A DNA stretch of 64,000 bases, from NCBI GenBank assembly GCA_015233115.1, contig JADFYJ010000003.1, forward strand, positions 40,536-104,535, read 5' to 3'. Shown here piece by piece: positions 3,030-43,956 of the stretch. Source of the stretch: Candidatus Omnitrophota bacterium (GTDB lineage Bacteria; Omnitrophota; Gorgyraeia; Zapsychrales; Zapsychraceae). Under the pieces are notes generated by a model, which was given only the letters and a program-made list of their open reading frames with translations, made no database searches and was not told the DNA's origin. A program made the position numbers and the translations under genes. How positions within the stretch are numbered: the stretch's first letter is position 1; every line of letters starts with the position of its first letter.

Positions 3030-3956
3030 TCAAATCCTCCGGTCACGCACGTAATTACTCTTATCAAAAGTTTTGGCGTATTTTTTTAAGTCAGCGCCTA
3101 ATTCGGCGATTTGCGCGACGTGGGTAATCGGTTGGTATTTATTGCTCACCACAGCGATGGAAATGGCTAAGAGACTGAATTGCTGATATTCGCCTTGCCG
3201 GTTTTTGGCAATAATAAAACCGCTGCCTCGGTCATCGTCTGTATAAAAGCCAGGGACTAAAGCATCGAAATCTTTAATAATACCTTCGCAAATCTTATCC
3301 GTTGGTTCATCCGCCGCCACGAACACAAAATCATCGCCGCCGATATGACCGACAAACGTGTTGAGGCCGCCGATTTCCCTGACATTTTTGATGATGGTAC
3401 GCGCCGTGGCTTTAATAACTTCATCGCCTTTTTCAAAACCATATTTGTCGTTGTAAGCTTTAAATTTGTCTAAATCCGCATAACCAACGGCAAAAGTAAT
3501 TTTCTTGTCAATGTTGGCTTGAAGTTCTTCCATGATCGACGTGTTTCCGGGAAGATGTGTTAATGGGTTCGCGTCTAAGCTGCGGACTGTCCGGCGCAAG
3601 ATCATTTGAATTTTAGCTATGAGAATGTCGGGAGCAAAAGGTTTAACCAAATAATCATCGGCCCCAGCTTGAATGCCTTTGATTTGGTCTTGAGCTTCGC
3701 CTTTGCCGGTCAGCATAATAACCGGAATGTGCTGAAGTAAAATATCTTTTTTCATCTCTTTGCAAAAATCAATGCCGTTCATGACGGGCATCATATAATC
3801 ACAAACGACCAGGTCCGGTAATTTTTGTTGAACCATTTTTAAACCTTCAAGCCCATTAGGGGCCTGAAAAACATCATAATTTTCCGAGAGAGTCAGTTCC
3901 AAGACATCTAGAATGTCGGGATCGTCGTCTATAGTAACTATTTTTTCGCGTTTCAT
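3030..3956 (-). CDS. Response regulator with receiver domain plus GGDEF-type diguanylate cyclase domain (GGDDF variant)
   Basis: Receiver domain: DDDPD...VVCDYMMP...LTGKG. GGDEF-domain signatures: LTHLPGN, ADLDKFKAYNDKYG, IGGDDFVFV. Confidence 0.85.
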   Translation of the reverse strand: MKREKIVTIDDDPDILDVLELTLSENYDVFQAPNGLEGLKMVQQKLPDLVVCDYMMPVMNGIDFCKEMKKDILLQHIPVIMLTGKGEAQDQIKGIQAGADDYLVKPFAPDILIAKIQMILRRTVRSLDANPLTHLPGNTSIMEELQANIDKKITFAVGYADLDKFKAYNDKYGFEKGDEVIKATARTIIKNVREIGGLNTFVGHIGGDDFVFVAADEPTDKICEGIIKDFDALVPGFYTDDDRGSGFIIAKNRQGEYQQFSLLAISIAVVSNKYQPITHVAQIAELGADLKKYAKTFDKSNYVRDRRI

Positions 3957-6682: not shown

Positions 6683-6866
6683 TTTTCCCCCTTTATTTAA
6701 GCAATAATATATTAATTTTATAGATGGGTTTCAAGAGTGTCAATAGGAATAACATTAATATTGACGAGAAAACAAAATATGTTATTATTGATGCGGTTTA
6801 AATTTGGGACACAAAACTTAATTCGATAAAAATAGTTTGAATTAAGTATTATGTCCCTTGTTTCCT

Positions 6867-6940
6867 GGCCCCATCGTCTAGCCTGGTTAGGACGGAAGAT
6901 TCTCAGTCTTTAAACACGGGTCCGAATCCCGTTGGGGCTA
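6867..6940 (+). tRNA. tRNA-Glu (anticodon CUC as folded by eye); integration target of the downstream element
   Basis: Acceptor stem GGCCCCA/TGGGGCT with discriminator A. D-arm GTCT..GGAC. Anticodon stem GAAGA/TCTTT with loop TTCTCAG. T-arm ACGGG-TCCGAAT-CCCGT. No CCA is encoded. Confidence 0.75.
6892..6940 (+). repeat. attL core: 49-bp 3' portion of tRNA-Glu, directly repeated at 15974-16022
   Basis: ACGGAAGATTCTCAGTCTTTAAACACGGGTCCGAATCCCGTTGGGGCTA is identical at both sites. Confidence 0.85.
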
Positions 6941-7041
6941 TTTGTACAATTTGTCGACGGAAATCGTACTAAACACACGGTTTCCGTTTTTTGGTCTATT
7001 TCCTGATTTTTCCCCTGTTTTTCCTGCTTTTACCATAGCTT

Positions 7042-7064
7042 GGGTTACAATTTGGGTTACAAAA
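7042..7064 (+). promoter_or_regulatory. Putative recombinase arm-type binding repeat (GGGTTACAA x2), left copy; right copy at 15924-15946
   Basis: GGGTTACAATTTGGGTTACAAAA lies ~100 nt inside attL. GGATTACAATTTGGGTTACAAAT lies ~30 nt inside attR. Confidence 0.4.
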
Positions 7065-7480
7065 TTTTTAAGCCTTCAAGGTTATTTCTTGAGGGCTTTT
7101 TTGTTTAATACCGCTTTTTTTGACCTCTGGGTTTGGCGGAATATAAATCAAACTTGGAACGATACGGCTCGTGTTGTGCCTTTCCGAACCACCGAAAACA
7201 AACGTCTTTGGGTGAGACAGCTAAGCTGTTCAAGAATCCTGAACGGTGCGAGGGAAGAAATAACTAAGAAAGAGTTTTGACCAACCAACCTGCATACATC
7301 TGGTCAACACTTAACTTAGTGTTTAGATATATTCATACAAGCAGAAAAGAACAGTCTGCAGGGAGGGGTGAACTATGTCGCTAGCGCTCAGAAAAGCCTA
7401 TGCACAATTCAATAAACGTGTTGGGGGTCAAATTAACTATAAAGGAAATCTAGTTCCATTCAAACCAAAGGAGCCTAAAA

Positions 7481-8095
7481 ATGAAAAACATCGGAATCTA
7501 CGCCCGCGTAAGCACCGGAGATCAAACCTCGGAGCAACAATTAGCCGTATTAAGGAGTTATTGCGAGAACGCGGGGCATAAAATTGCAGATGAATATATT
7601 GACGAAGGAGAAAGCGCGTTAAAGCAGAATCGGCCTCAATATTTACGATTATTAGATGATGCCCGAAAACGAAAAATAGACACGATTCTGGTTTATAAAT
7701 TGGATAGGTTTAGCAGAAGCTTAAAGGAGCTGGTTAATACGATTAGTACGATTAAAGGCTATGGGGTTAATTTTATCAGCTACACAGAAAAAGATTTTGA
7801 TACAACAACCGCAACCGGCCAGCTTATGTTTCATATTGTCTCTGCCTTTGCCCAATTTGAACGGGATATGATTTCAGAAAGAACAAAACTCAAACTCGCT
7901 TATTTAAAAAGCAAGGGCGTTAAACTTGGCCGTCCTCGTAAGGTTGAATATGATAAGGTTTTTGCTTTAAGGGCCAGAGGGCTGTCCTTGAGCCAAATAG
8001 GAAAAGAATTCAGCTGTGGTAGGGCAACAATATGTAAGGCGTTAAAAAAACGTATTTTTGATGAAAAGAAACAGACCGTGGCGGTGGTGGGGTAG
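7481..8095 (+). CDS. Small serine recombinase (resolvase/invertase family)
   Basis: N-terminus IGIYARVSTGDQTSEQQ contains the catalytic Ser. The C-terminus has an HTH. SD AAAGGAG. Confidence 0.85.
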   Translation: MKNIGIYARVSTGDQTSEQQLAVLRSYCENAGHKIADEYIDEGESALKQNRPQYLRLLDDARKRKIDTILVYKLDRFSRSLKELVNTISTIKGYGVNFISYTEKDFDTTTATGQLMFHIVSAFAQFERDMISERTKLKLAYLKSKGVKLGRPRKVEYDKVFALRARGLSLSQIGKEFSCGRATICKALKKRIFDEKKQTVAVVG

Positions 8096-8144
8096 TTTTT
8101 TATGTGTTTAGCCGCAAGAATGTGAAGAAAGGAAACCCATTAGG

Positions 8145-8504
8145 ATGGATGATCGTGATTTAAAGGGACGGTTTAAAAAAGGGAGCAACGCTAATCCTAA
8201 AGGAAACAACCAATTCACCTCGATTGTTCCAATGATAGAAGCTTTAGATAAAGTTGGAAAACAAAAAAAAGAGGATTTTTGGGTGATGGTAGCTCGAAAA
8301 GCTTGGGTATCGGATACTGTTTTAGTGCATATTTTGAAAAAGATACTACCAGATCGGAAAGAATTGGCTTATGACGAGAAAGATAATGGATTTAACCGTT
8401 TAGTCAGAAGCGTTTCTGAGATCTCAACTGAAGAATTAAGCGCCATAACTGAAATGTTACGAAATAGCGTTCAGAAAGGTGATCAGAACCAGATCAGGGA
8501 TTAA
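8145..8504 (+). CDS. Hypothetical protein with a phage-associated N-terminal motif (GRFKKGSNANPKG, DUF5681-like)
   Basis: ORF inside the island. No recognisable catalytic motif. Confidence 0.4.
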   Translation: MDDRDLKGRFKKGSNANPKGNNQFTSIVPMIEALDKVGKQKKEDFWVMVARKAWVSDTVLVHILKKILPDRKELAYDEKDNGFNRLVRSVSEISTEELSAITEMLRNSVQKGDQNQIRD

Positions 8505-8598
8505 CAATTGTATTTTTGGAAAAATTAAAATATAATGCATACAGTTTCGTGTGACGCAAGAATATGTTATACTAATTGTAAATTAGGGGGAGAAGTTT

Positions 8599-9255
8599 AT
8601 GGAAATTGAAAATAAATTTTGTAATATTGTTGTATTAGGTAATTTTAATCCTGCCATTCTTACGCACGAATTTTTGGTTGATATCTGTAAAATTGATTTA
8701 GAAAAGCCTATTAATTTGCAATTAACGCCAATACATTCTCAGATAAAATATCAAAAAAATAATATTTCATTTCTAACATCTTTAGATAGGTTTGAAATAA
8801 GCGAATTAAAACCAGAGGTTTTTGAAAATTCTATTATTCCGAAATGCGCAAATTCATATTTGAATGTGTTGAAATATACACCTATGGTTCTTTGTGGTGT
8901 CAATTTTCAGATTGATGCAAAAAATGTTGATTTGGTAAATTTACAGAACAGCTTTGTTAAACAAGGGATTGAGTTAAAAAAATTTTTAAAAGCCAAAAAT
9001 GTGACCAATAGGCATTCAATTGATATTGATGAAGCAAATAAAGAACAATATGTGGGATATGACGTTAAGTTTACGTTGCGGGATGGTATTTCCGGGAATA
9101 TAAGAGTAAAAGTGCTTGGTGAAAAAAATATAAATTTAAACTATAATTTTGAAGTTAGTTTAGAAAACAAAGATAATTTGAAATTGATCCTAGCTGATTA
9201 TTACCAAAGGGCAGTAGAATTTAAAGATTTTATTAATCATTTTATTAAAGGCTAA
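8599..9255 (+). CDS. Hypothetical protein, cargo operon gene 1 (218 aa, no recognised domain)
   Basis: SD GGGGGAG lies upstream. AT-rich. Its stop sits 1 nt before the next gene's start. Confidence 0.5.
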   Translation: MEIENKFCNIVVLGNFNPAILTHEFLVDICKIDLEKPINLQLTPIHSQIKYQKNNISFLTSLDRFEISELKPEVFENSIIPKCANSYLNVLKYTPMVLCGVNFQIDAKNVDLVNLQNSFVKQGIELKKFLKAKNVTNRHSIDIDEANKEQYVGYDVKFTLRDGISGNIRVKVLGEKNINLNYNFEVSLENKDNLKLILADYYQRAVEFKDFINHFIKG

Positions 9256-9256
9256 A

Positions 9257-9949
9257 ATGAATTCTCTTCAAGAATTATCAAGAGTTGCTACAATAACGAA
9301 TTTAAGATTTACAACGCCTAATACGGATGCTTGTAATGAAGCCTTTAAGGTAAAACTTGAAAAGAGAGATGCTCTTTTGTATACGCAATGGACAAGATTG
9401 TTCGGACAAAGCCCTGTTGAGCTAAGAGATTCAAGTGATATAAAGTATGTTGTTAGCGTCGAGAATGATGATATTATGACGACAACTTTAATCAGCGATT
9501 CGTTTTATGTTTACAGTCAAAATTGGCGGCAAAGTACAAATGGTGCAGATTTTGGCGAAATATTCGCTTATGAAAAAGATGACAGCTGCGATGAGATAGA
9601 ACAAATTTATTTTAGTTTAAATTCATCTTTAAATTTGAAGCCAGCTGCCATCGGCGAAGAGATAGAAGACGCGGTTTTTGATTTCTGTAAAAAAGAAAAT
9701 TTATTACAAGAATTTTATGCGTTTGATTGTTTTATTAAAAAATGTTTCATAAATATAATAAATATCAATGTCAAGGCAAAGCCAGATCCGGAAATAAAAA
9801 ATAAAAATCAAGTGATAGTTGAAGTGTTTATTAAGGATTCTATTCGCGGGATTATTGATATGCAAAATAATTTTTTTGAGTTGGTTTTTAAGGAATTTAA
9901 TGGCTCTATTTTCGATAAATTCGTTTTAAAGTGTGAAAAATATGGATGA
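9257..9949 (+). CDS. Hypothetical protein, cargo operon gene 2 (230 aa, acidic, no recognised domain)
   Basis: Translationally coupled to gene 1 (TAAaATG). It overlaps gene 3. Confidence 0.5.
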   Translation: MNSLQELSRVATITNLRFTTPNTDACNEAFKVKLEKRDALLYTQWTRLFGQSPVELRDSSDIKYVVSVENDDIMTTTLISDSFYVYSQNWRQSTNGADFGEIFAYEKDDSCDEIEQIYFSLNSSLNLKPAAIGEEIEDAVFDFCKKENLLQEFYAFDCFIKKCFINIININVKAKPDPEIKNKNQVIVEVFIKDSIRGIIDMQNNFFELVFKEFNGSIFDKFVLKCEKYG

Positions 9950-10346
9950 GATTAATTTTTTGAATTTGGCTAAAGAACTTGATGAACGGCCTCCGGTGAC
10001 CGAAGAAAAAATTCGAACAGCTGTTAGTCGGGCGTATTATTATTTATTTTTAAAAATAAGAGCTTCCTTAGAGTCTGTAGGGTTAAAGTTCAAAAGGGCT
10101 GCCGAAGATCACGACGAAGTAAAAAATATGCTTTTAAAAACTGATATTACTGAAGCTCGAGCAGTTGGACTTTCTTTAGAAGAATTAAGAAGAAAAAGAA
10201 ATGATGCTGATTATGAAATGGAAATAGGAGGGTTTGGATTTGGATCAAACTCTGCTACTTTGGCAATTGCACAAGCGGAGAATGCAGCAGAACAATTTAA
10301 TCGCATAAATCGGAATTGTCTTAAAGAGAAAATTCGCGTAAATTAA
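9942..10346 (+). CDS. HEPN-like alpha-helical protein, cargo operon gene 3
   Basis: VSRAYYYLFL and LRRKRNDADYE resemble the HEPN Rx4-6H region, but Y sits in place of H. The ATG at 9942 overlaps the stop of gene 2. The track offers an alternative GTG at 9933. Confidence 0.4.
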   Translation: MDEINFLNLAKELDERPPVTEEKIRTAVSRAYYYLFLKIRASLESVGLKFKRAAEDHDEVKNMLLKTDITEARAVGLSLEELRRKRNDADYEMEIGGFGFGSNSATLAIAQAENAAEQFNRINRNCLKEKIRVN

Positions 10347-10377
10347 TTTTTAAAAATTATTTATACGCGCGCTTTGT

Positions 10378-10710
10378 TTATTTTCGATGTTCACAAATAT
10401 TTTTATAAATGCTAAGCAGTAGGTGGGCATCTTTGAAATTGTGTTTATTGAGAAGTCTTTTTAATTCTTGAGTAGATTTTGTCGTATCCTCGCTGCTTAT
10501 TACCTCCTCAAATAATTCATTTATTCTTACCTCTAAAGTCTCTGCTATTCGGGTGATGGTGTCTAGGGAAGGTTGTTTAATCCCTCGTTCGATTAATCCG
10601 ATATAGTTGTCGCTCGCTTCAATTTTCTCAGCTAATTGTGATTGAGTTAATCCCGCTTGTTCTCGAAAGAAACGAATCCGTTTGCCTAACATCCGGTAAG
10701 GTTTTTCCAT
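10378..10710 (-). CDS. XRE-family helix-turn-helix transcriptional regulator
   Basis: HTH_3 signature LTQSQLAEKIEASDNYIGLIERGIKQPSLDTITRIA. Divergent from the downstream cargo gene. Confidence 0.8.
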   Translation of the reverse strand: MEKPYRMLGKRIRFFREQAGLTQSQLAEKIEASDNYIGLIERGIKQPSLDTITRIAETLEVRINELFEEVISSEDTTKSTQELKRLLNKHNFKDAHLLLSIYKNICEHRK

Positions 10711-10883
10711 AGTAAACCTCCTTGCCAGATATGATATTCAAAAAAATTATTAAGACCACATACCATAAGTATGTTTTTTGCTGGAAAAAACTATCCATAA
10801 GTTATATTATTGTTAAAATTGGATAAATTTTTCCAATGTAAAGCGACAAAAAATAGAATTGGGTCTTAATAGAGGTTAGGAGT

Positions 10884-11837
10884 ATGCAAAAAAATATTGG
10901 TAAAATTTTAAAAGTTCCTTTACGCAATCTTTGGAAAAAAGAAGATAAGGATTTTACTAAATGGATGGAAGAAAATATTGATTATTTGAATGACATTTTG
11001 GATTTTGAAATTTCAATTGAATCGAGCGAAGAAAATGTTGGCCCCTTCCGCGTAGATCTTTACGGTGAAGATGGTTTTGGGCGAAAAGTTATTATTGAAA
11101 ATCAACTTGAAAAAAGCGACCACGATCATCTCGGTAAACTTTTGACATATTTAATCAATCTTGAAGCTAAAATTGCAATCTGGATTTCTAGCGATCCCGT
11201 TGAGGAGCACTCTGCTGTCATAGATTGGTTAAATGAAGTTGCCCCGGATGATATGCTTTTTTATTTAATTAAGATTGAGGCCATTGAAATAGAAGGGCAG
11301 TCTATGGCTGCCCCACTATTTACAATTGTTAAAGGGCCAACAGCTGAGGCTAAACAGTTGGGAAGTGAGAGGAAAGAATTTGCACAACGTCATATTGTAC
11401 GAAAGCAATTTTGGGAGCAACTTTTAGAGAGAAGTAAGAATAAAACAAAGTTGTTTTCCAATATTTCTCCGAGTATGGATCATTGGTTGTCTACGGGTAT
11501 TGGAAAATCCGGCATTGCATTGAGTTATTTGATTACAAATAAGTACGCTGGTTGTGATCTTTATTTTTCGAGAGGAAGGAATAAGGCAGACGATGAAAAT
11601 GTAAATAAAATTTGGTTTGATGAATTATACAAAAATAAGGATCGGATTGAAAAAGAATTTGGCGCGCCGTTGGATTGGCAGCGATTAAATGATAAATGGG
11701 CTTCAAGGATCGCGTGTCATTACCAAGGCTTGACTTTGCAAGATGAGAAAAATTGGCCTATGATTCAAGATAAATTGATTGAAACAGCAATTCGTATGGA
11801 AAAAGTCTTTGCGCCGTTTATAAAGCAATTGGAGTAA
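10884..11837 (+). CDS. PD-(D/E)xK nuclease-like protein (DUF4268-like pattern)
   Basis: The motif VDLYGED...VIIENQLEKSDHDHLGKLLTY fits D...E-x-K plus the conserved IENQLE.tDHDHLG block. Assigned from memory of the family. Confidence 0.4.
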   Translation: MQKNIGKILKVPLRNLWKKEDKDFTKWMEENIDYLNDILDFEISIESSEENVGPFRVDLYGEDGFGRKVIIENQLEKSDHDHLGKLLTYLINLEAKIAIWISSDPVEEHSAVIDWLNEVAPDDMLFYLIKIEAIEIEGQSMAAPLFTIVKGPTAEAKQLGSERKEFAQRHIVRKQFWEQLLERSKNKTKLFSNISPSMDHWLSTGIGKSGIALSYLITNKYAGCDLYFSRGRNKADDENVNKIWFDELYKNKDRIEKEFGAPLDWQRLNDKWASRIACHYQGLTLQDEKNWPMIQDKLIETAIRMEKVFAPFIKQLE

Positions 11838-11838
11838 A

Positions 11839-12744
11839 ATGAAAAAAATAGTTATTGGTCTTATATTATTTTTGTGCTTTCAAATAGCTATTGTTAAGGC
11901 AGAACCCAATATTTCCATCCCCGAAGATATTTTCAAAGCCTTGGATAATCTCAAAGACGACAATTTGCAATTGAACTGTACGGAAGCCGCCCTTTATCTT
12001 TATGATCGAAGAGAAAAAATTGTTGATATTTTAATAAATGTATTACCGAAACTTGATTGGCAAGGCCAAGATGTCATATTAAAAATACTTACTGAGACCG
12101 AAACCTATAGTCCGAATGAATATATTATAAAACTTATGCTTGAGCGGATTAAAGATGAAAGGAGTCCAAATATACGTAACGCTCACGACATTTATCATTA
12201 TGACTATATTCCTTACATTAGAAAATATGCGAAGCAGTTTAAGGACGAGCTTAGGACATATATAAAGATTGGAAATATTAGACAGCTCTGGGTTGTGACG
12301 CACATACTAGTCAAAGAAAATATTTTTGATGAAATAAGCGATGCTTATAGTCCTAAGTTGATGAATTTTGTAATCAAAAATTTGCGGGATGATAATATCG
12401 ATATGAATGCATCTTATTCGGCAAGAATTTGTTTTTTAATCGGTAAAAATAGTCTTCCGTACCTAAAACAAGAAGTGAAAGATGGCGACGCTCAATCCAA
12501 GGAAATAGCAAAGACTTTAGTCAGATATATTTCTGAAAATCGCCGTTTTAATCCGGATGATTTATGGGAATTTGTTGATGAGCTAAGTGTCTCGGGTGTT
12601 ACATTAGGAAGCACGTATTTAGACAGAATTGAGCGAGAAGGGGCCAGCAAATTGCCGGATTTTTGGTTTGGGTCAAATGTATCTAAACAGCCTAAATTTT
12701 TAATAAGTGGAAAATATACAAACAGACAGCAAATGAGCGAGTAA
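11839..12744 (+). CDS. Secreted hypothetical protein (signal peptide)
   Basis: N-terminus MKKIVIGLILFLCFQIAIVKA. Confidence 0.5.
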   Translation: MKKIVIGLILFLCFQIAIVKAEPNISIPEDIFKALDNLKDDNLQLNCTEAALYLYDRREKIVDILINVLPKLDWQGQDVILKILTETETYSPNEYIIKLMLERIKDERSPNIRNAHDIYHYDYIPYIRKYAKQFKDELRTYIKIGNIRQLWVVTHILVKENIFDEISDAYSPKLMNFVIKNLRDDNIDMNASYSARICFLIGKNSLPYLKQEVKDGDAQSKEIAKTLVRYISENRRFNPDDLWEFVDELSVSGVTLGSTYLDRIEREGASKLPDFWFGSNVSKQPKFLISGKYTNRQQMSE

Positions 12745-12750
12745 TTAAGA

Positions 12751-13431
12751 ATGAAAAGGATATTGATATTTATCATTTTTTTATTTGTTTCAAGCGTATC
12801 TGCCGCACAAGAACTATCGTCTGTAGAAAAGATTAAATTTCAAGAAAAGAAGGGAAGCTGTGAAGTCACTGGGGAGTATCCGCAATTTAAGATCCTAAAA
12901 ATTTCTGCCAACAAACTTAAAAATGTAAATAAAGAGATAAATGTGTTTGCTCGAAGTCTTTTTATAAAGTTTTTAACAAAAGATGCCATCGGACAACAAA
13001 TCAAAGAAGATTTCAAGACAAGCAGTAATGGGAATACGTTTGATATTGATTTTAATGTAATAAGGGCAGATACAAGGTACGTTAGCGTAATTTTTCAAAC
13101 TTATTTTATGCAAGAAAACGCACCTCACGGCGTTGGACATTTTTATGCGTTTAATTATGATGTCGAACATTCAAAAATTATTCATTTAAGTGATCTTTTT
13201 AAGCCGGGTACTGACTATTTAAAACAACTTCGGGGTTTTTGTAATCGCGATCTTGAAAAACAATTAGGGAACGGGTTTTATGATAAGGACGCTGTAAATG
13301 ATAGTACACAATTTACTTTTGACCAAGAAAGTTTAATTATTCATTTTAGTGCTTATGAAGTTGCTTGCTATGCTGCTGGTATGCCAGAAGTCAAAATTTC
13401 ATTTAAGAAGCTGATAGGGCTTAAAGAATGA
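12751..13431 (+). CDS. Secreted protein, DUF3298/DUF4163 (RsiV C-terminal-like) family guess
   Basis: Signal peptide. The ...APHGVGHFYAFNYDV...IHLSDLF pattern resembles DUF3298. Confidence 0.4.
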   Translation: MKRILIFIIFLFVSSVSAAQELSSVEKIKFQEKKGSCEVTGEYPQFKILKISANKLKNVNKEINVFARSLFIKFLTKDAIGQQIKEDFKTSSNGNTFDIDFNVIRADTRYVSVIFQTYFMQENAPHGVGHFYAFNYDVEHSKIIHLSDLFKPGTDYLKQLRGFCNRDLEKQLGNGFYDKDAVNDSTQFTFDQESLIIHFSAYEVACYAAGMPEVKISFKKLIGLKE

Positions 13432-13604
13432 GAATTTGTGGCTGTTAAAAAAAGGGTATCAAAAAGTCCTGTATGAAATTAGCCGATTTATGGCTGTTTC
13501 CAAAACGAACGTTTTTTAAACATTTGGAGAGAATGTTGGTAGAGGTGAGGACGGGCTCAATTATAGCGGTGTGTTATAACGGATGACAGTATAAACAATA
13601 ATAG

Positions 13605-14048
13605 ATGCGAGGTGAAGAAATGAAAATCATTGTCATTGCTTTATTGTCAGTATTTTTAATTGGCTGTTCGGCTGCATATTGGAATCAGGTAGCGGAAAAT
13701 ATGCGGAACAACCCGTATCATCCTCCTCAATATCAATCTCCCCAACAAAATAATCAGCCGTCTATGATTGACCAGTATCATCAAATGCAACAACAAACGT
13801 ATCAAAATCAATATCAACAACAACAGTTACAATTACAGCAACAGCAAATGCAGTTACAGCAACTACAAATACAAGCTCAACAGCGACAGCAGCAGCAACA
13901 AATTGGTCAATATTTAATGCAGCCTTTGTCCCAATATCATCCGTTAAATGTCCCCAATAACGTACCAGAACAGTCGGGAAGGGTAACAACACATTGTACT
14001 TCAGCATCGATAAACGGGGGAGGAGGAATGGATTGTACCTCTTATTAA
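13605..14048 (+). CDS. Gln-rich lipoprotein
   Basis: Lipobox LIGC. Long poly-Q/L region. The true start may be the ATG at 13620 (MKIIV). Confidence 0.5.
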   Translation: MRGEEMKIIVIALLSVFLIGCSAAYWNQVAENMRNNPYHPPQYQSPQQNNQPSMIDQYHQMQQQTYQNQYQQQQLQLQQQQMQLQQLQIQAQQRQQQQQIGQYLMQPLSQYHPLNVPNNVPEQSGRVTTHCTSASINGGGGMDCTSY

Positions 14049-14149
14049 TTAACAAACAAAATTAATCAGTCGTATCAGTTATTTCGGGAAAAGCTCTTCC
14101 GCTTCATTAATTTTAGAAAATATTTTTTTGTTTATGAGACATAAAGAAA

Positions 14150-14641
14150 TTAGGATGGCTTTCGGCTGTCCTTTATTGCTTCTGTAAGTCCTAAATCTTC
14201 ACAATGATTTTTTAAAACCTCTTCGCCCTCTTTGGTTAAATCCAATAAAATTTGTTTATTTTTAGTGTTTGGCATTAAAGATATTTGCGCTTTCAAGTTT
14301 TTAAATATTGAAAGGGCTTGAATAAGACTTGAATACATTGGCAGATTCAAAATCTGTTTCGACAAAGATTTTTTAACATCTTTTAGATCAAAAGGGAAAG
14401 ACCAATTGACGTAGGGGGCTGTTTCTTTGTCATCTAAGACATTAGCAAGGCTAATTGCAATAGGGTAAGATGGCTTTTGTTTGGAGGCTTCTAACCTAGA
14501 AAGATAGCCTTCTGTTATACCGACTTGTTTTGCGACTTCGAGCAAGGATAGGCCTTTATCCATACGAATTTTCCTAATTCTTTGGCCCATCGTTTTGACA
14601 TCTTTTGGATAATCTGATTTTCTCATACGTTTATAATCCAC
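14150..14641 (-). CDS. CI-like XRE-family repressor of the element
   Basis: N-terminal HTH LSLLEVAKQVGITEGYLSRLE plus a C-terminal domain. Divergent from xis-int and shares an operator region with it. Confidence 0.7.
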   Translation of the reverse strand: MDYKRMRKSDYPKDVKTMGQRIRKIRMDKGLSLLEVAKQVGITEGYLSRLEASKQKPSYPIAISLANVLDDKETAPYVNWSFPFDLKDVKKSLSKQILNLPMYSSLIQALSIFKNLKAQISLMPNTKNKQILLDLTKEGEEVLKNHCEDLGLTEAIKDSRKPS

Positions 14642-14642
14642 A

Positions 14643-14718
14643 TTTCTTACCTACTTGTCAAGAAAATAGTTTACAAAAGGGAAATATTGGGGTATAATCT
14701 TACTTGTTAGGTAAGAAA
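14643..14718. promoter_or_regulatory. Divergent switch region: 11-bp inverted repeat TTTCTTACCTA / TAGGTAAGAAA flanking a sigma70-like promoter (TTTACA-17-TATAAT with TG extension) driving xis-int
   Basis: -35 at 14670-14675 and -10 at 14693-14698 with a 17-bp spacer. The inverted-repeat arms are at 14643-14653 and 14708-14718. Confidence 0.45.
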
Positions 14719-14739
14719 CAATAAAAAAGGAGTGTCAAA

Positions 14740-14919
14740 ATGGGTGATTTTATGACGGTTCAAGAAATAGCGGCTAAAGTTAGGAAGGCGACAAAAACAA
14801 TTTATCATTACGTCGAAACTGAAGTAATTCCGGCGAATTTAATTATCCGAGTTGGCAACTCAATTCGTATGCGACCTTCGGATTTTGAAAAGTGGATTGA
14901 AGGACAGCGAGGCAGATAA
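14740..14919 (+). CDS. xis: Excisionase / AlpA-like small DNA-binding protein (HTH_17)
   Basis: 59 aa. MTVQEIAAKVRKATKTIYHYVE fits a MerR-type HTH. SD AAAAAGGAG. Immediately upstream of the integrase. Under 60 aa, so not in the track. Confidence 0.6.
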   Translation: MGDFMTVQEIAAKVRKATKTIYHYVETEVIPANLIIRVGNSIRMRPSDFEKWIEGQRGR

Positions 14920-14920
14920 A

Positions 14921-15919
14921 GTGGCGCATTTTCGTAAAAGAGATAATGGGTTTTACTATGCTTATTGGAAAGAAAAACGTTCTAATGGGTTATGGTACAC
15001 AATGGCTAAAGCATTAAAGACTAAAAATAAATTTGTTGCTCAAAAACGGTTTAATAATTTATTCGCCGAAGATTTGGGAGAAGTTAAAGAGTGTTATGTT
15101 GAAGATTGGGTAGAGCTTTTAAAGCGAAGCTTGGGTACAGAAGACTTAGATTCCAAAACTACAACCAAATATATTTTTCACGCCGAACGATTTATTGGTT
15201 TTTTTAATGGTAGGGTCAGGAAAATGAGCGATTTTAGACACGAACACATTATTGAGTTCATAAATAATTTAAATCAGTCCAATTATTCAAAGAGCACGGT
15301 TGCCGGTTACGGGCGAAGTTTACGAAAAATGTTTAACATTGCTTTGGACTTAGAATATGTCCGCAAGAGTCCAATGAAGAGGTTTAAAGTAGGCAAAATG
15401 GAACAAAGACAAAGATTCTTTAATCCATCGGAGATAATTAAGATACTAGAAGTTGCTAAGGAAGATCAATTTCAATACGCACTTGTTTTGTACTCATTAC
15501 AGACGGGTTTTCGAATTGAAGAGGTTGTGGATTCCTTCTGGGAAAACATTAACCATACAAACAGAACGATTACAGTGATAGGAAAAGGAAAAAAATCCCG
15601 GCGTCAAAAGATTCCGGCGTTAGCATACGAAGCTATAATGAAATTGAATGGTAAATGGCCTACGCTTTTTGGTAAGCAACAAAAGCAGTTGTATCGCGAT
15701 GTAAAGGTTGTTTTAGCAAAAGCTGACGTAAAAGGGTCGCCGCACGTCTTTCGGGACTCCTATGCTACATATTCGATTAAAATAATGCCTTTAAGCACGT
15801 TACGGGAGAGGATGGGGCATAGTAGCTTGCTTCAGACCGATAAATATACGCACGCATTAAATTCGGAAGTTGACCCAGAAGTAATGAAATATTTTGAAGA
15901 TTGGCAAATTCAGAGGTAA
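14921..15919 (+). CDS. int: Tyrosine recombinase / phage integrase
   Basis: C-terminal catalytic residues ...R...HVFRDSYAT...GHSSLLQTDKYTH carry the R, H-x-x-R and Y. The GTG start is coupled to the xis stop. The track's ATG at 14852 would overlap xis by 68 nt. Confidence 0.8.
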   Translation: MAHFRKRDNGFYYAYWKEKRSNGLWYTMAKALKTKNKFVAQKRFNNLFAEDLGEVKECYVEDWVELLKRSLGTEDLDSKTTTKYIFHAERFIGFFNGRVRKMSDFRHEHIIEFINNLNQSNYSKSTVAGYGRSLRKMFNIALDLEYVRKSPMKRFKVGKMEQRQRFFNPSEIIKILEVAKEDQFQYALVLYSLQTGFRIEEVVDSFWENINHTNRTITVIGKGKKSRRQKIPALAYEAIMKLNGKWPTLFGKQQKQLYRDVKVVLAKADVKGSPHVFRDSYATYSIKIMPLSTLRERMGHSSLLQTDKYTHALNSEVDPEVMKYFEDWQIQR

Positions 15920-15973
15920 TTATGGATTACAATTTGGGTTACAAATGGCTAGTTTTAGGTGAAAATAGTATGA

Positions 15974-16022
15974 ACGGAAGATTCTCAGTCTTTAAACACG
16001 GGTCCGAATCCCGTTGGGGCTA
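15974..16022 (+). repeat. attR core: 49-bp copy of the tRNA-Glu 3' end
   Basis: Identical to 6892-6940. Confidence 0.85.
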
Positions 16023-16028
16023 CTAAAT

Positions 16029-16063
16029 AAAAGGGACTGCTTTGTGCAGTCCCTCTTTATTTA
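16029..16063. terminator. Bidirectional rho-independent terminator, probably the original tRNA-Glu terminator displaced by the island
   Basis: Stem GGGACTGC/GCAGTCCC with loop TTTGT. Flanked by A-rich sequence 5' and TCTTTATTT 3'. Confidence 0.6.
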
Positions 16064-16266
16064 ATATGCTTCGCGGAAGACCCACAACGAGTGAAGCGAG
16101 TCGGACCTGAACCAAAATTTCCACCGCAAATTTAGAAAGATTTTTAATCCTCCTATTTCCTCAAACCTTCTTGACATTGTTTAAACTATTAAATATAGTA
16201 AACGTGCATCTGGAGATTTTTCTATATTATTGATATATATAGATTTTCCAAAAATAGGGGGTCAGA

Positions 16267-43574: not shown

Positions 43575-43658
43575 TGCCGGGGAAGGGAATCGAACCCACA
43601 TGAGCTTGCGCTCACTGGTTTTTGAGACCAGCGCGTCTACCAATTTCGCCACCCCGGC
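43575..43658 (-). tRNA. tRNA-Leu (anticodon CAA), type II
   Basis: The reverse complement folds as acceptor GCCGGGG/CCCCGGC, anticodon stem CTGGT/ACCAG with loop CTCAAAA, and a long variable arm. Confidence 0.8.
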
Positions 43659-43669
43659 GTGTAATAAAA

Positions 43670-43687
43670 TCGAAAAATATGGAGCTG
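43670..43687 (-). repeat. 18-nt duplicate of the tRNA-Ala 3' end (TGGAGCTGAGGGGGATCG), a possible att remnant
   Basis: Identical to 43787-43804. The two copies are separated by a 99-nt non-tRNA segment. Confidence 0.5.
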
Positions 43688-43786
43688 AGGGGGATCGGCG
43701 CCCTACGGGTCGGCCACTCGCCTCATAAGCCAGATGCTCCTATTCGTCGCATCTAATCGGCTCTCTTCGTTTCCCCTTAACAGCAA

Positions 43787-43859
43787 ATTTTATAAATGGA
43801 GCTGAGGGGGATCGAACCCCTGGCCTATTGCATGCCATGCAATCGCTCTCCCAGCTGAG
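43787..43859 (-). tRNA. tRNA-Ala (anticodon GGC) with G3:U70
   Basis: The reverse complement is GGGGCTGTAGCTCAGCTGGGAGAGCGATTGCATGGCATGCAAT...CAGCTCCA. Confidence 0.85.
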
Positions 43860-43956
43860 CTACAGCCCCTAGTGTCCTGGGCAAAAAAGCTGACCCAATA
43901 TAACACTCAATATTTTTATTGTCAATAGATTGGCTGGGTCTGTATACTGATCTCTT

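Follow-up and report, generated by a model that had tools for sequence, protein, structure and literature searches.

A 9,082-bp stretch in the chromosome of a metagenome-assembled genome (MAG) from the Omnitrophota is read here as a site-specific integrative genomic island, inserted at a tRNA-Glu(CUC) gene and equipped with a tyrosine integrase that appears to be controlled by an island-encoded repressor; for this reading, island, integrase and repressor taken together, we estimate a probability of about 0.8. The island lies within a 64,000-nt stretch of contig JADFYJ010000003.1 that was analysed as a whole and is referred to as the window; contigs of relatives carry L numbers. The sequence features delimit the island well and indicate that it is probably active. 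An earlier note on the same DNA had proposed an integrative element at this place, and the features it listed are all present, exactly or within 1-2 nt of the positions it gave. The boundaries are marked by the following features.

6867-6940, + strand: intact tRNA-Glu(CUC) gene (ARAGORN 6866-6941; Rfam tRNA, 54.8 bits)
6892-6940, + strand: attL core, the 3' 49 nt of tRNA-Glu, a perfect direct repeat with 15974-16022
6957-6993, + strand: replacement terminator 1, hairpin ACGGAAATCGT/ACGGTTTCCGT and T-run
6996-7034, + strand: pyrimidine-rich direct repeats TTTCCTGATTTTTCC / TTTCCTGCTTTTACC (direct-repeat search)
7070-7106, + strand: terminator-like hairpin 2 and T-run (terminator scan)
15974-16022, + strand: attR core, the displaced 49-nt 3' fragment of tRNA-Glu, a perfect repeat (49/49)
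16032-16063, + strand: native tRNA terminator, now 9.08 kb from the tRNA, with a GC-rich hairpin (16032-16054) and then a T-run

ARAGORN, Rfam and a direct-repeat search bear out that an intact tRNA and a perfect 49-bp repeat of its 3' end delimit the element, as the earlier note had claimed. The identity block begins on the 5' side of the anticodon stem and ends at the discriminator base, and the spacing between the two copies, 9,082 nt, gives the length of the island. The possibility that the repeat belongs to a second full tRNA gene is excluded, as ARAGORN makes no tRNA call at the attR copy and its Rfam score, 25.6 bits, does not reach the gathering score (29). Exact matches to the final 16 nt of the tRNA number two in the 64-kb window, and at up to three mismatches there are three, versus 0.44 expected by chance; besides the two att copies no extra tRNA 3' remnants were found in the window. 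Furthermore, the GC fraction is 0.29-0.37 inside the island versus 0.39-0.47 in the flanks.

The 9.08 kb are extra DNA, since a related genome has the empty site. Exact-protein look-ups of two island-flanking genes gave no match, and the site was reached via a homologue search with the flanking FIST gene, which has an 80%-identical homologue in the Omnitrophica MAG GCA_015233195.1 (contig L247), the closest relative found. The tRNA-Glu of L247 is identical to that of the window at 72 of 74 positions. AAAAAGGACTGCCATATGGCAGTCCTTTTTATTTAAT comes immediately after it, and this stretch and about 100 nt beyond it align with window positions 16023-16130. By this alignment, the junction between the tRNA and the homologous terminator in L247 is an empty attB, and it supplies the comparison with a related genome lacking the island that the earlier note had suggested. 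The native terminator of the window, homologous to the hairpin directly 3' of the tRNA in L247, does lie just outside attR, as had been noted; however, the insertion was not between the tRNA and its terminator, as the note had it, but within the 3' 49 nt of the tRNA, which was rebuilt from the copy brought by the element.

Replacement terminator 1 is an inverted repeat of 11 nt with 91% complementarity followed by a T-run read from the sequence, and a hairpin with a T-run stands at the same position in L006, L008, L009 and L250. Hairpin 2 would insulate the downstream recombinase module against read-through from the tRNA. The pyrimidine tract between the two hairpins is kept in L005, L006, L009 and L089, and its repeats are candidate sites for Xis or accessory proteins in the P' arm of the attachment site.

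The integration functions and their control region occupy the attR end, with one arm doublet at either end of the island.

14921-15919, + strand: tyrosine integrase, 332 aa (Pfam Phage_integrase and SAM-like domains)
14740-14919, + strand: excisionase-type HTH_17 protein, 59 aa (Pfam HTH_17, 5.3e-9; phrog_66 excisionase)
7041-7063, + strand: predicted P' arm-type integrase site, GGGTTACAA doublet (motif TGGGTTACAATTTGGGTTACAAA)
15923-15945, + strand: predicted P arm-type integrase site, GGATTACAA/GGGTTACAA doublet (22/23 identity to TGGGTTACAATTTGGGTTACAAA)
14150-14641, - strand: HTH_3 (XRE-type) repressor (Pfam HTH_3, 1.1e-10; PHROG transcriptional repressor families)
14633-14739, no strand: divergent control region (promoter scan and repeat search)
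14670-14698, + strand: P(xis-int), TTTACA-17-TATAAT, the top-scoring promoter-like site in the region
14661-14633, - strand: P(rep), promoter-like site TTGACA-17-GATTAT
14643-14653 and 14708-14718, inverted: putative operator half-sites TTTCTTACCTA and TAGGTAAGAAA, 11 nt, bracketing the two promoter-like sites

Pfam searches agree with the earlier assignment of a tyrosine integrase, an xis gene and a helix-turn-helix (HTH) repressor to the attR end and of a serine recombinase to the attL end. The integrase reading frame has a longer form starting at 14852; the start is most likely GTG 14921, two bases past the xis stop codon. Of the catalytic residues, R198, K222, H275, R278 and Y309 do not vary in the homologue alignment, and H300 hardly does. 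A protein of an NCBI "Candidatus Omnitrophica" MAG is 100% identical to the integrase. The best PDB match is XerA (E 3e-7), and the best phage integrase match is at most 29% identical. Homologues with 64-79% identity occur on metagenome and MAG contigs, and six of these contigs (L001-L006, 65-73% identical) were read. Their right ends are alike, with a divergent upstream gene, xis-int, an arm doublet, a spacer of about 30 nt and a 49-nt tRNA-Glu(CUC) fragment, which in each relative matches its own host's version of the tRNA in the anticodon and T stems. The divergent gene encodes an HTH repressor in five of the six (that of L004 has no family match), and the excisionase-type protein is 62-81% identical in relatives. 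The cargo of these contigs varies, including NYN, SLFN/AlbA_2, AAA_21 with RloB, and metabolic genes.

The 22-bp motif that the earlier note had placed near both ends was recovered as the two doublets, with 22/23 identity between them. The P arm doublet begins 4 nt past the integrase stop codon and has the same position in L002-L006. Exact GGGTTACAA occurs three times in the 64 kb, all within the two arm doublets; with one mismatch it is found 14 times versus 14.3 expected, and because this count is at chance level the signal lies in the exact doublets and not in the 9-mer itself. A GGGTTACAA doublet to the left of the serine recombinase is also present in L005, L009 and L089, and the GGATTACAA variant in L250. 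Other integrases come with other arms. The island of L008, 6,275 bp long and inserted in tRNA-Phe, has a perfect repeat of 28 nt, an unrelated tyrosine integrase and TAACGTCAC-type doublets at equivalent positions, and L090 shows a third arm type, ATCTGTGTAA, twice after yet another integrase. Doublets that switch when the integrase does are expected of arm-type sites, and the best reading of the 22-23-nt motif is a pair of such sites, to which the integrase presumably binds.

On the 5' side of the tRNA, a palindromic insert of about 52 nt was observed at 6793-6857 of the window (arms 6806-6824 and 6839-6857), between a promoter-like TTGACG-16-TATTAT of tRNA-Glu (6761-6788) and the 5' end of the tRNA. 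It is absent from the empty-site relative L247 and could represent either an inserted miniature repeat or a hairpin involved in processing. A weak third copy of the arm motif (6793-6815, 74%) falls inside this insert and was judged unrelated to the island.

In the repressor, HTH_3 spans residues 22-70; the C-terminal half has no known domain, and Pfam detected no Peptidase_S24 domain in the protein. Its start is probably ATG 14626, because relatives align from residue 6. A minus-strand -10-like GATTAT (14638-14633) lies only about 7 nt upstream of this ATG, so the repressor mRNA may be leaderless; the lambda cI mRNA made from PRM is leaderless. In agreement with the earlier note, the TTTACA-17-TATAAT promoter has 11-bp half-sites on both sides. 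Element-specific inverted repeats occur in the repressor-xis intergenic region of four integrase relatives (L002, L004, L005 and, weakly, L006), visibly bracketing the xis promoter in the first three, and L001 has direct repeats instead. Such element-specific repeats fit a diversified cognate pair of repressor and operator, like immunity specificities. Of the lambda-like switch proposed earlier, the putative operator repeats at back-to-back promoters stand. The S24 domain is missing, however, and a Cro-like second repressor was not found, the divergent gene being the HTH_17 excisionase-type one, followed by the integrase. The description that the sequence supports is a repressor-controlled xis-int operon, not a lambda switch.

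In the mechanism proposed here, the HTH_3 repressor would bind both half-sites around P(xis-int) and keep xis-int off, until a signal relieves repression and Xis and Int act. The tyrosine integrase would recombine attP, composed of an arm doublet, the 49-nt copy of the 3' part of the tRNA and the second arm doublet, with the 3' 49 nt of tRNA-Glu(CUC). As the identity block begins at the anticodon stem, the crossover likely takes place in the anticodon stem-loop. The element's own copy would restore the tRNA, and the two element-borne hairpins with their T-runs would replace the displaced terminator; regeneration of the tRNA from the element's 3' copy is the classic geometry of tRNA islands (Williams 2002). 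For excision, Xis and Int would release a circle ordered int, attP and recombinase module, in which the serine recombinase would lie directly downstream of a contiguous int-attP module. The order int, arm, core, hairpin, pyrimidine tract, arm and recombinase module is observed in L006, where the junction matches the predicted attP of the window in organisation, at 65% identity, and represents either an excised circle or a tandem junction. A terminal overlap was sought in the contigs L005 and L006; none was found, and no claim of a circular contig is made for either.

It is rather unlikely that the island is an immobile, domesticated remnant kept for its cargo. Decayed, integrase-less islets are common at the same tRNA in relatives, and no circular form or polymorphism has been observed for the window copy; the repeats are, however, perfect over 49 of 49 nt, arms and operators are intact, all backbone open reading frames (ORFs) are intact and retain their catalytic residues, and a closely related genome has the empty site.

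A phage satellite resembling the phage-inducible chromosomal islands (PICIs), held off by its HTH repressor until an anti-repressor from a helper phage leads to excision and to packaging in helper capsids, is unlikely. The small size, the integration at a tRNA, the repressor divergent from xis-int, the immunity-like differences in repeats between elements and the defence-type cargo described below would all suit a satellite, as would the fact that the serine recombinase of a relative adjoins PrimPol-DUF5906, a pair typical of satellites. Against this, Pfam, NCBIfam and PHROGs revealed in the element neither a replication module nor genes for terS, capsid or packaging redirection, and they gave no match to a terminase or relaxase family either; four ORFs have no family match in the libraries against which each was scanned, so distant homologues may have escaped notice. 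Moreover, the element has no close relative in IMG/VR, where the exact 49-nt core is absent too, and phage integrases share at most the 29% identity given above. The earlier label of a satellite or mobilisable island keeps the finding that capsid and relaxase families are lacking, but as a label it is built on absences, and no close relative in IMG/VR lends it weight.

At the opposite end of the island, just inside attL, lies a small serine recombinase preceded by a conserved upstream region.

7481-8095, + strand: small serine recombinase, 204 aa, resolvase/invertase type, motif YARVST (Pfam Resolvase, 9.5e-44, and HTH_7)
7109-7160, + strand: conserved promoter region of the recombinase, with TTGACC (7120-7125), 16 nt and TATAAA (7142-7147), read by eye
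7177-7321, + strand: candidate structured 5' leader RNA, six helices, about 145 nt (alignment of 6 sequences)
7375-7581, + strand: small upstream ORF, 68 codons, with a strong GGGAGGGG ribosome-binding site, overlapping the recombinase start in another frame

The Pfam Resolvase match spans profile positions 3-144 of 145, the PDB matches are to Gin invertase (1e-22) and gamma-delta resolvase (1e-19), the PHROG match is to a DNA invertase (5.9e-54), and the protein is without the large C-terminal domain of serine integrases. Homologues with 68-77% identity are numerous in Omnitrophota and are found in some assemblies of candidate phyla (CPR), and relatives in IMG/VR do not exceed 43% identity. 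When genomes and metagenomes were scanned with the recombinase, 10 close loci came up, the other ~150 being distant resolvases of other phyla that were left out. The homologous genes lie about 180-620 nt downstream of tRNA-Glu (L009, L087, L088, L250), tRNA-Phe (L008), tRNA-Ala-tRNA-Leu(CAA) (L007/L254) or tmRNA (L011); in L006 and L090 the gene stands just past the int-att junction, and L005 holds both recombinases on one 6.6-kb contig. Wherever the upstream sequence of a close homologue is long enough, the recombinase lies directly inside the att site; the exception is L252/L253, where a PrimPol-DUF5906 module precedes it and a tRNA was not found. Such a distribution marks it as a conserved backbone gene of islands that differ in integrase, arms and target, and not as their integrase. 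The earlier note had found the presence of two recombinase classes noteworthy; both are indeed present, but the combination has a precedent in the tycheposons of Prochlorococcus (see below), and the noteworthy part is the conservation of the backbone gene. A fixed partner protein downstream of the recombinase was considered and dropped, the downstream gene not being conserved except between the window and L252.

Region 7109-7160 holds a CCGC..GGCGG repeat and a covarying inverted repeat CTGGGTTTG/CAAACTTGG, and is kept in the window, L005, L008, L009, L011, L089 and L250. Its TTGACC-16-TATAAA is missing from the list of the promoter scanner because the second hexamer ends in A. In Tn3, gamma-delta, Sin and beta the res site typically lies just upstream of the resolvase gene itself, and by this analogy the region is the best candidate for the binding or crossover (res-like) site of the recombinase. 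A second copy of it was found on neither strand of the window. A resolvase-type role is tentatively assigned to the enzyme, at somewhat less than even odds: it is suggested by the lack of a second inverted site, and favoured by the res-site analogy, by the tandem remnants that are common at these tRNAs and by the PrimPol-DUF5906 neighbour in L252. In such a role, the recombinase would act on the single site in its own promoter region and resolve dimers or tandem arrays, it might exchange modules between islands, and its expression would be controlled by the structured 5' leader and the overlapping small upstream ORF.

A role for the enzyme as a DNA invertase, operating a phase-variable switch within the island, is improbable. 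Its best matches in PDB and PHROG are Gin and DNA invertase families, and some sources name homologues "Pin-like invertase"; however, the match to gamma-delta resolvase is nearly as good, the conserved upstream region has no inverted second copy in the window, which argues against inversion, and no strong long inverted repeat flanks a segment (the best has 38 nt and 71% complementarity). That the serine recombinase, not the tyrosine integrase, places the islands at tRNA or tmRNA genes, or is a second, independent integrase, is very improbable, as its fixed place at a tRNA, tmRNA or att junction (L252/L253 excepted) and its persistence in the integrase-less L250 are outweighed by its 204-aa resolvase/invertase build without the large C-terminal domain, by identity blocks of 49 and 28 nt and arm repeats that are hallmarks of tyrosine integrases, and by a serine recombinase that remains 70-77% identical where the tyrosine integrase, and with it the arms and the target tRNA, differ.

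The leader upstream of the recombinase was aligned among its carriers, namely the window, L007/L254, L008, L011, L089 and L250, L254 being a near-duplicate of L007 from another sample. In this alignment (n = 6), 91.7% of the cells are paired and 11 pairs show compensatory changes, versus at most 55.5% and 6 pairs in slid controls. The helices form hairpins of variable length, the invariant G-U pairs fit the + strand, which is the strand of the recombinase gene, and a single-sequence fold of the window leader gave the same architecture (z = -2.64). The leader has no match to an Rfam family, in the window or in relatives, and a covariance model (R1) run over about 1 Mb of fetched loci found no copies beyond the six source sequences and L254. 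L005 and L009 carry a different leader. We regard the leader as a good candidate for a cis-regulatory RNA, not as an established one. In L007, a GP20-b Rfam match at 3803-3880 (23.5 bits versus a gathering score of 36.2, E 0.34) is below threshold and probably due to chance; the overlap is with the conserved region, ahead of the recombinase gene, that holds the promoter and the inverted repeats.

The small upstream ORF is conserved over its first ~35 codons, where synonymous third-position changes are visible in the alignment, and tblastn finds it with 55-60% identity in L007, L008, L011, L250 and L254 and with 46% in L089. Promoter-site region, leader, small ORF and serine recombinase might together form a previously undescribed unit that recombines islands at the boundary of the integration module, which we consider a long shot. 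Within such a unit, an RNA-controlled or even RNA-assisted recombinase could resolve arrays or swap integration modules or cargo; if true, this would explain how one backbone comes to be paired with several integrases in Omnitrophota.

Several points count against the interpretation as a whole. Both the current excision of this copy and the pairing of the repressor with its operator are predictions from sequence. The attP-like junctions in L006 and L090 could be tandem arrays and not circles. The role and the site proposed for the serine recombinase come solely from analogy with Tn3, gamma-delta, Sin and beta, and since L250 keeps the gene where no integrase remains, its retention is independent of an active island. 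Finally, the structure of the leader stems from only six distinct sequences and was derived from those same sequences, and because of this small and self-referring sample it is a good candidate only.

Between the recombinase and the repressor the island carries the following cargo.

8145-8504, + strand: 119-aa ORF with no family match in Pfam or PHROG scans
8599-10346, + strand: three-gene cassette, 218 + 230 + 137 aa, the last gene HEPN-like
10378-10710, - strand: HTH_3 regulator, 110 aa, divergent from PDC-S11 (Pfam HTH_3, 1.4e-13; PADLOC HTH_VI, 2e-18)
10884-11837, + strand: PDC-S11/DUF4268 protein, 317 aa, NucS-like nuclease (PADLOC PDC-S11, 1.8e-112; Pfam DUF4268, 6.6e-33)
11839-14048, + strand: three cargo ORFs with signal-peptide-like N-termini (301, 226 and 147 aa)

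The PDC-S11 match is full length (residues 1-316 against profile positions 1-311 of 314) and makes this protein a candidate anti-phage defence gene ("Madara"); a 2026 preprint reports PDC-S11 to act against phages in E. coli, where it is linked to BREX, and gives it the new name Madara (bioRxiv 10.64898/2026.09.05.749240). The divergent 110-aa regulator resembles a control (C) protein (PADLOC Control_protein, 6.6e-11). In the three-gene cassette, the 137-aa protein matches phrog_5176 (3.1e-16) and, weakly, PADLOC HEPN_IX (0.0013), and in L252/L253 a homologue of the 218-aa gene stands in synteny, with a gene of 179 aa and one with weak HEPN similarity behind it; the cassette is possibly a defence or toxin module. 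The 119-aa ORF has a homologue directly after the serine recombinase in L252/L253 (38% identity, E 1e-14). Among the three ORFs with signal-peptide-like N-termini, the 226-aa protein is DUF3298/PdaC-like (Pfam DUF3298, 1.9e-17) and the 147-aa protein is a Gln-rich putative lipoprotein. As predicted from these matches, the cargo is mainly of defence type, with secreted or lipoprotein-like genes besides.

In L252 (7270-20464) and L253, the recombinase homologue is 72% identical and comes directly after the PrimPol and DUF5906 genes, which form a replication module. It is followed by the homologues of the 119-aa and 218-aa ORFs, the HEPN gene, Hypoth_Ymh, UmuD/UmuC-like genes and an IS110 transposase. 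This locus resembles a larger, possibly replicative relative of the island backbone.

In relatives, the region downstream of attR shows the 3' end of the tRNA and its flank repeated at 86-95% identity. These repeats bound islets of 0.7-3.4 kb (L001 4390-5143, L002 6929-10403, L004 7603-8953, L250 12117-15388), several of which carry RHH/ParE toxin-antitoxin pairs, and a composite island seems to be growing through repeated insertion and decay at one tRNA. At the end of contig L004 (15292-15464) a second xis-int start has 79% DNA identity to the first, so L004 has two related islands within 9 kb. The neighbourhood tRNA-Leu(GAG)...FIST-tRNA-Glu recurs with such islands in L009, L087, L088 and L250, a sample that is biased because these loci were found by searching with the serine recombinase. 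In MAG GCA_964487685.1, the left end of an island of this family (FIST, tRNA-Glu, arm, serine recombinase) is on L009 and the right end (xis-int, arm, tRNA fragment) on the separate contig L002; with their ends split in this way, such islands evidently break assemblies and are easily missed or mis-binned. The window itself has a tRNA-Ala(GGC) and tRNA-Leu(CAA) pair at 43575-43869 (- strand), and the same pair is occupied by an island with a serine recombinase in L007/L254. A tblastn search of the 64-kb window found no second copy of the recombinase or the integrase.

The island is thus a cleanly delimited element with a matching empty site in the Omnitrophota, an uncultivated phylum for whose integrative elements a literature search found almost nothing. 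Its integrase, Xis, att and arm sites are known in enough detail for trial as a site-specific integration tool. The island itself is of an ordinary kind, and the concrete leads it offers are the conserved serine-recombinase module and the unclassified leader.

Compared with known systems, the PDC-S11 protein shares with Madara the full-length profile match, DUF4268 and the NucS-like N-terminus; Madara in E. coli is BREX-linked, whereas the homologue in the window has a divergent HTH regulator, is located on a mobile island and has a predicted function. Like the small serine recombinases of the Tn3/gamma-delta (resolvase) and Gin/Hin (invertase) systems, the enzyme has its catalytic domain with the active-site Ser at the N-terminus, a C-terminal HTH_7, a length of ~200 aa and a conserved site-bearing region directly upstream of its gene. 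It is not part of a Tn3-type transposon, as a transposase is lacking, and it has no inverted pair of sites. To our knowledge, a long structured leader and an upstream ORF are not features of the Tn3/gamma-delta or Gin/Hin systems.

PICIs and the related SaPIs are similar in size, in their site-specific integrase, in a master repressor divergent from the excision operon and in a role in defence; in contrast to them, the window element has no primase/replication origin module, neither terS nor genes for capsid remodelling, and no helper phage that has been identified. In SGI1, int/xis are accompanied by the resolvase gene resG. With SGI1 and other integrative mobilisable elements (IMEs) the island has in common a tyrosine int/xis together with a resolvase-family gene, a non-conjugative nature and tandem arrays at the target. 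However, no relaxase, mating-pair or replication genes were detected in the window element, the island is much smaller, and it uses a tRNA and not trmE. In the search for relaxase families, the window element gave only a MobT trace (0.0053) that is confined to the HTH of the repressor. The general biology of IMEs is taken from PMC5704250.

By its sequence organisation, the island is a textbook tRNA-integrating genomic island. Islands in tRNA and tmRNA genes fall into the sublocation classes of Williams (2002). Like the classical ones, it is bounded on one side by an intact tRNA and on the other by its displaced 3' fragment, and it has an integrase next to an end, a tRNA regenerated by the element, a GC anomaly and an empty site in a relative. 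There is no essential difference from the tyrosine-integrase islands of the Islander/TIGER type (PMC4383910), and what sets the island apart is its host in the Omnitrophota and an integrase lineage that is apparently undescribed.

Among known systems, the island appears to work most like the cargo-carrying tycheposons, small elements of Prochlorococcus with tRNA-specific integrases and a small serine recombinase as a hallmark (bioRxiv 10.1101/2020.12.28.424599). Both are tRNA-specific, match the type of integrase to the tRNA, and occur in tandem arrays with partial-tRNA remnants. Both lack conjugation or capsid genes, reside in streamlined uncultivated or oligotrophic bacteria, and carry cargo for niche adaptation or phage interference, represented in the window by PDC-S11 and the HEPN-like cassette. 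The hallmark genes of tycheposons include xis, regulators and a small serine recombinase, and genes of these kinds are present in the island. Tycheposons have, by the definition in that text, an inward-facing integrase, whereas the integrase of the window faces outward, towards attR; the window element is also without the primase/helicase that the same definition makes optional. The fixed position of the recombinase at the att site and the leader RNA are features of this family of islands of which the accessible text of the preprint makes no mention for tycheposons. Because the integrase is not inward-facing, the island is not filed as a tycheposon. Small tRNA-targeted cargo islands with tandem remnants, tycheposon-like in kind, nevertheless exist in Omnitrophota and carry predicted anti-phage genes (PDC-S11/Madara).

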